A stretch of DNA of 64,000 bases from Campylobacter sp. (GTDB lineage Bacteria > Campylobacterota > Campylobacteria > Campylobacterales > Campylobacteraceae), in contig JALFKC010000055.1 in the NCBI GenBank assembly GCA_022775765.1, forward strand, positions 3,051 through 67,050. The letters are read 5' to 3'. Within the stretch, counting starts at the first letter, position 1. The number at the start of each line of letters is the position of its first letter. Made by a program: the position numbers and the translations under genes. This document shows, piece by piece, positions 57,769-59,063 of the stretch. The notes beneath the pieces are model-generated. The model did not search any database. It had not been told where the DNA came from and saw nothing but the letters and a program-made list of their open reading frames with translations.

Positions 57769-58026
57769 TTACAATATAAATTTTGATATATTTTTTAGCT
57801 TTTTGAAAATATCAAATCTATCAGCGTCGCTATGAACCATCACGCTGACATTAAAACTTTGATATTTGCCGCCACTACTCTGTTTTGAAAAATTTATTTT
57901 AAACTCTTTACCTTTAAGAATTTCTTTGATATTTGTGATGACATCTTCATTTTTATCAAAAATCACCTTATATTCCCAGAAATTTGGATAGTCGATTTTG
58001 GGCTTAGTTTCGCAGATATTCGCCAC
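57769..58026 (-). CDS. DUF493/YbeD (HP0495)-family protein
   Basis: [25 protein letters not shown]. Confidence 0.85.
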
Positions 58027-58474
58027 TTTTGCCCCCTGATTTTTTTAAAAGATAGATATCATAAATTTCCATACTTTTATCGATGGCTTTTACCATATCA
58101 TAAATTGTCAAAAGCCCTACACTAACGCCAGTTAATGCCTCCATCTCTACGCCTGTTTTGCCATCGCATTTTACGCTAACAAAAAGCTCAAAAGCTGAGA
58201 TTTTGGGGTGTTCTTTGATATCAGTTTTGATAGAGTTTAAAACTAAGGGGTGAGTCATTGGGATGAGTTCGCTAGTTTTTTTGACCCCCATAATCGCTGC
58301 AATCACAGCAGTTTGAAGCACGGGGCCTTTTTTGGCGGTATTTTCTTTGATGACCTTGTAGGCTTCATCACTCATTTTGATTTTACCAGAAGCTGTGGCG
58401 ACGCGTGTTGTAATGGTTTTGTCACCTACATCTACCATTTTGGGTCTATCGTTTTCATCTAAATGTGTTAGCAT
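58004..58474 (-). CDS. moaC: Cyclic pyranopterin monophosphate synthase
   Basis: [36 protein letters not shown]. Confidence 0.97.
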
Positions 58475-58560
58475 AAATTTCCTTTTTTAGAAATTATATC
58501 AAAGTATGAAAAATAAAAGTAAGATTTTAAAAATTTAAAAATAAAAAATGGGTTAAATTT

Positions 58561-58625
58561 AAAAAACCCGAAGAGCCTTAGCTCATTCGGGTATTACAAA
58601 AAGGAGGTTTTTATCTTGTTGGACG
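58561..58625 (-). ncRNA. Candidate small RNA with anti-SD motif and intrinsic terminator
   Basis: Minus strand: TATAAT (58631-58636), then AAAAACCUCCUUUUUG, then ACCCGAAUGAGC-UAAG-GCUCUUCGGGU followed by a U-tract. Confidence 0.55.
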
Positions 58626-58701
58626 ATGTAATTATAATCCCTAAAGATAAATTCTACCATAATTTAATATTAATAAATTATAACGCAATAAATTTTATCA
58701 T

Positions 58702-59063
58702 TTATTTTGAAATTTCTGCGTCTTTTGCTTGATTAATCACTAAATTTATCACCTTTAAACAGTCTTCTTTTTTGATAAAATCATCGCTTGTAGCGATAAT
58801 TTGACCGTTTGTTGCACAGAGTCTAAATCTAAATTTGCCTGCTTTATCGGCATAAATTTGAAATTTTGGGAAGCTTAGTTTTTGTGAGCTATCTACGCTT
58901 AAATCCTCAATTTTGCCAAAAGATGAGTTTTTCTTAACACTTTGTATGCTTTTTTTGCAACTAGCCAAAGTTGTATAAACTTCAGACGAAAGGCTATGTG
59001 CCCATCTATACTAAAGTCAAATTTCACGCCTGTAGCGGTCTTTTTTAAGATAAACTCTGCCAT
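58702..59063 (-). pseudogene. YegP/DUF1508-family gene, frameshifted
   Basis: MAEFILKKTATGVKFD from ATG 59063 shifts frame to SEVYTTLASCKKSIQSVK...KFQIYADKAGKFRFRL...NGQIIATS. Confidence 0.75.

Follow-up and report, generated by a model that had tools for sequence, protein, structure and literature searches.

A putative stand-alone small RNA gene with an anti-Shine-Dalgarno loop, found upstream of moaC in Campylobacter and shared with a Sulfurospirillum-like family

The analysed window, a stretch of 64,000 nucleotides of Campylobacter sp. DNA, contains on its minus strand a 227-nt gap between a yegP-like gene and moaC, and the question raised by this gap is whether it holds an independent small RNA (sRNA) gene or only regulatory sequences of its neighbours. 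A preliminary description of the locus had proposed a stand-alone sRNA of about 65 nt with an exposed anti-Shine-Dalgarno (anti-SD) motif, and a type I toxin/antisense layout as the alternative. The minus-strand genes are arranged in the order tkt (61006-59102), the yegP-like gene (58702..59063), the gap with the sRNA, moaC, and a DUF493-like gene (58026-57769). The moaC coding region runs from the ATG at 58474 to 58004, and its own -10 box, TATAAT at 58498-58493, was located where it had been reported, within the extended box TTTGATATAAT; with this box included, moaC occupies 58004..58498. The last 23 nt of moaC are also the first of the DUF493-like ORF (58004-58026; GTG start as listed), an overlap that points to translational coupling or to a true start further into the ORF. 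The yegP-like gene is divided into two frames (ORFs 59063..58899 and 58968..58702), with the switch apparently near GCCTTTCGTCT, and is either a pseudogene or the product of a one-base error in the 93-contig assembly.

On the minus strand of the gap, the -10 box TATAAT was confirmed at 58636-58631, and it is followed by a predicted sRNA of approximately 64 nt, GUCCAACAAGAUAAAAACCUCCUUUUUGUAAUACCCGAAUGAGCUAAGGCUCUUCGGGUUUUUU, at 58561..58624, both ends of which were deduced from conservation and from a homologue. The run AAAAACCUCCUUUUUG was read at 58612-58597, and the anti-SD motif CCUCC lies at 58607-58603. The GC-rich 11-bp hairpin with a U-tract described earlier was present as well: at 58592-58566, ACCCGAA-U-GAGC pairs with GCUC-UUCGGGU in 7+4 bp with one bulged U and the loop UAAG, and a T6 run is found at 58566-58561. 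Taken from the sequence and the fold, this stem-loop 2 with its U6 tract (58561..58592) is a Rho-independent terminator. The hairpin was not flagged by a consensus terminator scanner in the window, presumably because of the bulged U. The yegP-like transcript would also reach the terminator, which may serve both roles.

A second -10-like box, TGGTAGAAT, was also found as described, though one base off, at 58659-58651 of the minus strand. Its suggested use as a promoter was not upheld, as the box is without a counterpart upstream of the element in the relatives, and by this comparison it is probably non-functional. A longer RNA beginning from this box and including an upstream hairpin was considered and rejected, since conservation was lacking for both the box and the hairpin.

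The whole intergenic gap was used as the query in a BLAST-type search of 60 relatives. The conserved part was limited to query positions 54-111 (window 58652-58595), comprising the -10 box and GUCCAACAAGAUAAAAACCUCCUUUUUGUA, and was found, with 82-97% identity, at a single site per genome in almost all genomes of the window's genus; the flanks were unconserved. The 30-nt core of the sRNA was determined to be GUCCRACAAG..AAACCUCCUUUUUGU. When 325 Campylobacteraceae genomes were searched with the pattern CCRACAAN{1,5}AAACCTCCTTTTTRT, it occurred exactly once in 206 of them, among these most genomes of the window's genus (g1) and of genus g27, and the reversed pattern, used as the control, gave 0 matches. 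Judged by these matches, the same putative RNA gene is present in more than 200 species of the Campylobacter family.

For the more diverged copies, a covariance model (R1) was used that was limited to the core and stem-loop 1, because the lineage-specific terminators could not be brought into register by MAFFT in a full-length model; the terminators were described instead by folding each sequence. With R1, diverged copies of the form GUCCAACAGAUAAAACCUCCUUUUUGUAAU were detected at 41 bits in genus g26. In genus g28, 17 of the 58 genomes carried a perfectly identical 29-mer, GUCCGAUCAGGGAAACCUCCUUUUUGUAG. The 29-nt core of g28, GTCCGATCAGGGAAACCTCCTTTTTGTAG, was 100% identical in 17 species-level genomes (L198-L209), and GGGA of this variant could pair with UCCU, partly masking the anti-SD motif.

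In an order-wide pattern scan, a homologue (ACAAAAACCUCCUUUUUGU) was found in family f23, which is probably Sulfurospirillaceae, at 1-4 copies per genome. These copies retained the order of promoter, core and terminator, with a longer linker. A terminator loop with UUGCCCR was seen in all the f23 paralogues (L160-L166, L212-L214), and one f23 genome, G443, has three sRNA copies within about 32 kb. Beyond the Campylobacter family and f23 the scan gave no matches save one in family f5, and this lone match had no terminator hairpin after it. The R1 model and the core searches gave no copy of the element in those g28 genomes in which the C. jejuni hipO primer site is present; we take this site to be a mark of that species, and the C. 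jejuni identity of these genomes is provisional. Both C. jejuni and H. pylori appear to lack the sRNA. In most species of four Campylobacteraceae genera the sRNA family has a single copy, and in the Sulfurospirillum-like family it is multi-copy.

The independence of the element from its neighbours was evaluated with 65 distinct variants. In all 65, a TAtaAT-like -10 box stood upstream of the first conserved base at the same spacing of 6-7 nt, in the window 7 nt, and from this fixed distance G58624 was predicted as the start, in agreement with the earlier proposal of a start near 58625. The common order was a TAtaAT-like box, 6-7 unconserved bases, GUCCRACAAG..AAACCUCCUUUUUGUA, a GC-rich hairpin and usually a U tract. 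The hairpin followed the core in every variant, with stem sequences that diverge widely between lineages, and a U tract came after most of the hairpins, the C. concisus-type copies having no clear one. In two C. concisus-type loci (L111, L114) the hairpin has the loop CCCCC and no U tract, and the gene for a Sel1-repeat-like secreted protein has its ATG about 12-20 nt past the end of the hairpin.

Conservation upstream of moaC in Campylobacter, which the preliminary description had suggested as a check, was observed in part. The sRNA is located upstream of moaC in g1 and in parts of g27 and g26, including the Campylobacter sp. metagenome-assembled records L031 and L033, but it has other neighbours elsewhere. 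It was absent at that place from the moaC loci labelled C. concisus; in the C. concisus-type genomes it is flanked by an ABC permease gene and a Sel1-like gene. The sRNA stands upstream of a DUF493 gene without moaC in L105 and L106, beside lipoprotein genes in g28, and in f23 in other, unrelated intergenic sites. In most lineages a separate, extended -10 box is placed between the sRNA terminator and the ribosome binding site (RBS) of the downstream gene. The promoter at a fixed distance, the terminator of variable sequence and the conservation regardless of the neighbours are those of a stand-alone sRNA gene.

Public sequencing runs were examined for transcripts of the element. All the runs that matched the window locus well were pig-gut metagenome DNA; word matches to the locus came from a single RNA run, none of whose contigs mapped to the region. 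In the case of the f23 homologue L164, a 78-nt contig of the transcriptomic run X26, with a depth of 9500 and 0 mismatches, covered exactly L164:1446-1523. Contigs of neighbouring mRNA in the same run had a depth of about 23, so that the sRNA homologue was approximately 400 times deeper. The 5' end of the L164 RNA was located 8-9 nt after a TATACT box. T-runs were found on the plus strand at or before L164 position 1446; they show that an RNA of the minus strand, i.e. of the CCUCC strand, has a poly(A)-tailed 3' end and stops within the terminator U tract. The end at the hairpin and U tract that had been expected for the window RNA is matched by the ends of this homologue. In two sister runs of X26, 31-nt contigs with depths of 650-2600 were detected on the 3' part of the L164 RNA. 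Neither a tRNA (ARAGORN) nor an Rfam entry (scan of the locus) was found at the L164 site. Based on the depth, the ends and the poly(A)-tailed 3' terminus of the X26 contig, the family member at L164 is a discrete sRNA of very high abundance whose ends and strand agree with the prediction. That the sRNA gene is real and separately promoted, as first proposed, is supported by the comparative evidence (fixed -10 spacing, conserved core, variable hairpin) and by the expression of the homologue.

The data from the C. concisus type were of a different kind. In stranded, rRNA-depleted RNA-seq of a C. concisus-like strain, same-strand coverage with a depth of 14-31 extended from the upstream gene over the element to the downstream gene; no 5' pile-up was seen at the predicted start in this library, a type that would not keep a 60-nt RNA. 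The read-through indicates that the hairpin is leaky there and serves the upstream transcript too. Logan contigs of four other runs covered the C. concisus-type locus at low depth. In run X23, also of the C. concisus type, the coverage was zero across the sRNA and rose from about the 3' end of the hairpin and the RBS, and the Sel1-like mRNA therefore appears to begin at the hairpin or downstream of it.

These observations bear on the explanation that the element acts in cis. It would then be a leader or attenuator for the gene that follows (moaC), or else the 3' UTR and terminator of the upstream gene, and its conserved sequence would have its use in that transcript and not in a free regulator. 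It is directly upstream of moaC in the same orientation in g1, g27 and g26, and in L008 the moaC ATG comes only about 30 nt after the terminator; the C. concisus-type hairpin, without a U tract, abuts the RBS of the next gene, and read-through from the upstream gene was recorded in that type. Such a repeated position beside moaC in three genera could reflect a link in cis. However, the element is everywhere accompanied by a -10 box of its own at a constant spacing, the downstream gene varies by lineage and usually possesses its own -10 box, and the f23 homologue is a discrete RNA far more abundant than its neighbours. No alternative antiterminator pairing was seen, and the complementarity of the moaC SD to the sRNA was only 5-9 nt and unconserved. 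The Moco riboswitch RF01055, considered as a candidate, gave no match in the Rfam scan, nor did any other Rfam cis element. A role in cis is accordingly regarded as fairly improbable.

The 64-nt window RNA folded with -19.2 kcal/mol in comparison with -8.8 ± 2.4 kcal/mol in shuffles (z = -4.3), and none of the 200 shuffles was as good. In four lineages, i.e. for the window RNA and three homologues, the predicted minimum-free-energy structure was the same, with two hairpins, CCUCC in the first loop and z values from -3.8 to -5.2. In this fold a short 5' tail is followed by a weak A-U stem with the CCUCC loop, a short linker and the terminator hairpin. Stem-loop 1 was predicted at 58596..58619 (minus strand) with the stem ACAAGA/UUUUGU and the loop UAAAAACCUCCU; in f23 the stem is a perfect ACAAAAA/UUUUUGU. 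The CCUCC run had been described as part of an unstructured RNA, whereas the predicted fold positions it in a 12-nt loop of a weak stem. The description of the motif as exposed agrees with its display in this loop, and in the models CCUCC is exposed whether or not stem-loop 1 forms.

In the core alignment (A3), 93% of the cells were paired in stem-loop 1. Compensatory covariation was not found in this alignment, no pair having changed on both sides, and stem-loop 1 is accordingly plausible and compatible with the data, not proven. The loop ACCUCCU is identical to the 16S rRNA 3' tail of the relatives, GGAUCACCUCCU, a tail found 2-4 times per genome. The 16S rRNA 3' end (GGATCACCTCC, AAGTCGTAACAAGGTA) is missing from the window assembly (G000), as is common in metagenome bins, and the comparison therefore rests on the tails of the relatives and not on its own. 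C-rich terminator loops were determined in many lineages, namely CCCCC in g27, ACCC in g28 and UUGCCCR in f23, the window copy having UAAG.

The relation of the element to known RNAs was evaluated next to these structures. The Rfam search proposed with the first description placed it in no family, as nothing in Rfam 15 was at or near the gathering score (GA) for the window or four homologues. The best match over the element in the window was NsiR1 with 17 bits (GA 39), and the best of five weak matches covering it in one homologue, L004, was RF02278 with 24.5 bits (GA 50). In C. jejuni, the trans-acting CJnc230/FlmR has two stem-loops and an exposed anti-SD CCUU complementary to the RBS consensus and is Hfq-independent; it is 88-98 nt long, RpoN-dependent and always downstream of flgE (PMC11187230). 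The window RNA resembles CJnc230 in being a small Campylobacter sRNA with two stem-loops and an anti-SD motif. In contrast to it, the window sRNA is about 64 nt long with a sigma-70-type -10 box, has moaC or other neighbours and carries the full CCUCC; the two have no sequence in common, and C. jejuni-like genomes do not have the window element. With tkt, the yegP-like gene and moaC as neighbours and a promoter of the TATAAT type, it was not assigned to CJnc230.

The C/U-rich hairpin loop of the H. pylori sRNA RepG pairs with a G-rich leader (PMC8295292). Many members of the window sRNA family have a C-rich terminator loop like that of RepG, but the window copy (UAAG) is without one; sequence, locus and targets (G-repeats in tlpB for RepG) are also different, and there was no Rfam or sequence match. 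A similar pairing of a C/U-rich loop with G-rich leaders is reportedly used by CJnc190 of C. jejuni. RF02278, the Betaproteobacteria toxic sRNA, is short, has two hairpins with anti-SD-like CCUCC loops and is thought to bind many RBSs. The window sRNA is not a member of RF02278, as 24.5 bits is far below the threshold; the likeness is in the design and not in descent, and the phylum is another one. RsaE/RoxS of Firmicutes and the csRNAs of Streptococcus are conserved, abundant, Hfq-independent sRNAs whose C-rich or anti-SD motifs, placed in loops or linkers, repress the translation of several mRNAs, and RoxS/RsaE are linked to respiration and to NO/nitrate signals. Their sequences are unrelated to the window sRNA, no Rfam match was obtained, and the regulators and phyla differ. 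The respiration link of RoxS/RsaE parallels the nrfH lead presented below, as a functional and predicted parallel only.

We consider it reasonably probable that the locus is a stand-alone minus-strand gene of about 64 nt belonging to an undescribed sRNA family, the RNA of which would pair in trans, without Hfq, with strong SD sites. Transcription would start from the sigma-70-type promoter (TATAAT, 58636-58631) at about G58624 and would be ended near 58561 by the GC-rich intrinsic terminator. The 5-nt 5' tail GUCCA would be followed by the weak A-U hairpin showing AACCUCCU, the letters of the 16S 3' tail. The CCUCC loop and its U-/A-rich flanks may pair in trans with SD sites of the AAGGAGG type independently of Hfq, which would block 30S binding and lower translation. 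This action on ribosome binding sites is suggested by the complementarity, and caution about the targets is needed, since an anti-SD seed matches many sites. To our knowledge, the carriers, i.e. the Campylobacter lineages and Sulfurospirillum, are without Hfq.

Targets were ranked by the number of contiguous complementary bases in approximately 2000 crude translation start regions of the window genome. Contiguous counts were used because genome-wide duplex folding without accessibility terms was too noisy, giving long gapped duplexes. GGAGG was present in 36 of the ~2000 start regions, and at least 10 contiguous complementary bases were determined in 20. The top predicted site, with 14 contiguous bases (AAAAGGAGGUUUUU), belongs to nrfH (G000 C16:5786-6280), which has a TTG start and encodes the tetrahaem small subunit of nitrite reductase; with these 14 pairs nrfH would be the best candidate in the window genome. 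In roughly half of the carrier lineages that were compared, nrfH had 10-14 contiguous bases complementary to the sRNA of the same genome, and in the others 6-9. The control gene pepE had 11 nt in the window genome and at most 7 in all its other orthologues; having lost the match in all of these, it was rejected as a second conserved target and regarded as a chance match.

A C-G to U-A switch between G062 and G063 at first looked compensatory for nrfH. In the sample of 29 orthologues, the complementarity varied between 6 and 14 nt and did not clearly co-evolve with the sRNA, and the co-variation was dropped; nrfH therefore remains only a candidate. A TTG or GTG start was seen in all but one of the nrfH orthologues examined (L215-L272). 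A full AAGGAGG-type SD was present in nearly all of them, sRNA-free genomes included, and much of the nrfH signal is attributed to this universally strong SD. Regulation of nrfH by the sRNA, judged from the complementarity, is possible but rather doubtful.

A broader proposal can be formulated from the same material. In Sulfurospirillum and non-jejuni Campylobacter, the RNA would be a core riboregulator with high expression, the loop of which, copying the 16S tail, competes with ribosomes for a few mRNAs with a full AAGGAGG; nitrite respiration (nrfHA) would be its conserved target, and an ancestral adjacency to moaC would tie it to anaerobic respiration. In this complete form the proposal is speculative and unlikely to hold. 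If the competition at full-length SD sites were true, it would show a mimic of the 16S tail tuning a subset of mRNAs. The predicted target set is small, about 20-36 genes with strong SDs and nrfH as the first.

The family as such would be a new one with a known principle of action. A description of an sRNA of this type in C. concisus or Sulfurospirillum was not found in the full-text literature outside subscription journals, and the element is a candidate for a new Rfam family. As far as we know, the sRNA knowledge in Campylobacterota comes almost entirely from C. jejuni and H. pylori. The carriers of the present family are C. concisus-type and less-studied Campylobacter lineages and environmental Sulfurospirillum, and a single sRNA, strongly conserved and probably very abundant, would give a defined start for the RNA biology of these groups.

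Instead of pairing with mRNAs, an abundant sRNA could bind a protein, for instance by titrating a factor that recognises the 16S 3' tail. The identity of the loop with the 16S 3' end of the relatives, the extreme abundance of the f23 homologue and the length of the invariant block, which at 30 nt exceeds a typical seed, are in line with such a function. On the other hand, no partner is known or hinted at by the gene neighbourhood, and the sRNA is without GGA motifs for CsrA. Pairing of a C-rich loop with SD or G-rich sites, by which initiation is blocked, is, moreover, the documented mode of Hfq-independent sRNAs in the phylum (PMC11187230; PMC8295292). Protein binding as the main function is therefore held to be quite improbable.

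A DNA-level element without a functional RNA, either an operator-like inverted repeat ACAAAAA-N5-TTTTTGT or a terminator with conserved context, was suggested by the f23 core, in which two 7-bp arms form a perfect inverted repeat around a 5-bp spacer. It was rejected as very improbable on the grounds that the asymmetric centre CCTCC is invariant although the arms vary in Campylobacter, that the strand-specific order of promoter, core and terminator is kept everywhere, and that the f23 homologue yields an abundant strand-specific RNA. The type I toxin-antitoxin pair, in which the minus-strand RNA would be the antitoxin of a hydrophobic plus-strand peptide, is hardly credible: the AAGGAGG, a strong SD, and the TTG-started 38-codon ORF (58616-58732, plus strand, antisense to the sRNA 5' end) are present in the ORF list as described, but the ORF was judged non-coding, since it has 9, 11 or 19 codons in relatives (9-38 aa overall) with unrelated sequence after M-[L/S]-D, only TTG-T[T/C]G-GAC is kept, the spacing between SD and start shifts with indels in the A run, the conserved minus-strand block stops exactly at the predicted transcript start, and the abundant homologue transcript is on the CCUCC strand.

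Some minor features were recorded around the promoters and in additional copies. In the g27 and f23 copies (L109-L137, L160-L166), a TTTAGA/TTTAAA motif was located exactly 9 nt upstream of the -10 box, and it may be a regulator site common to both groups or belong to the promoter. The window lineage has instead a TTTAGG just 3 nt upstream of the box. In L105 and L106 (genomes G024 and G011), a second, divergently oriented paralogue, TGTATAAT .. UUUAACAUAUAACCUCCUUUUUAUGUA with a terminator, was found upstream of a pilin-like gene. The stem of this paralogue is ACAUA/UAUGU in comparison with ACAAA/UUUGU, an A-U to U-A swap.
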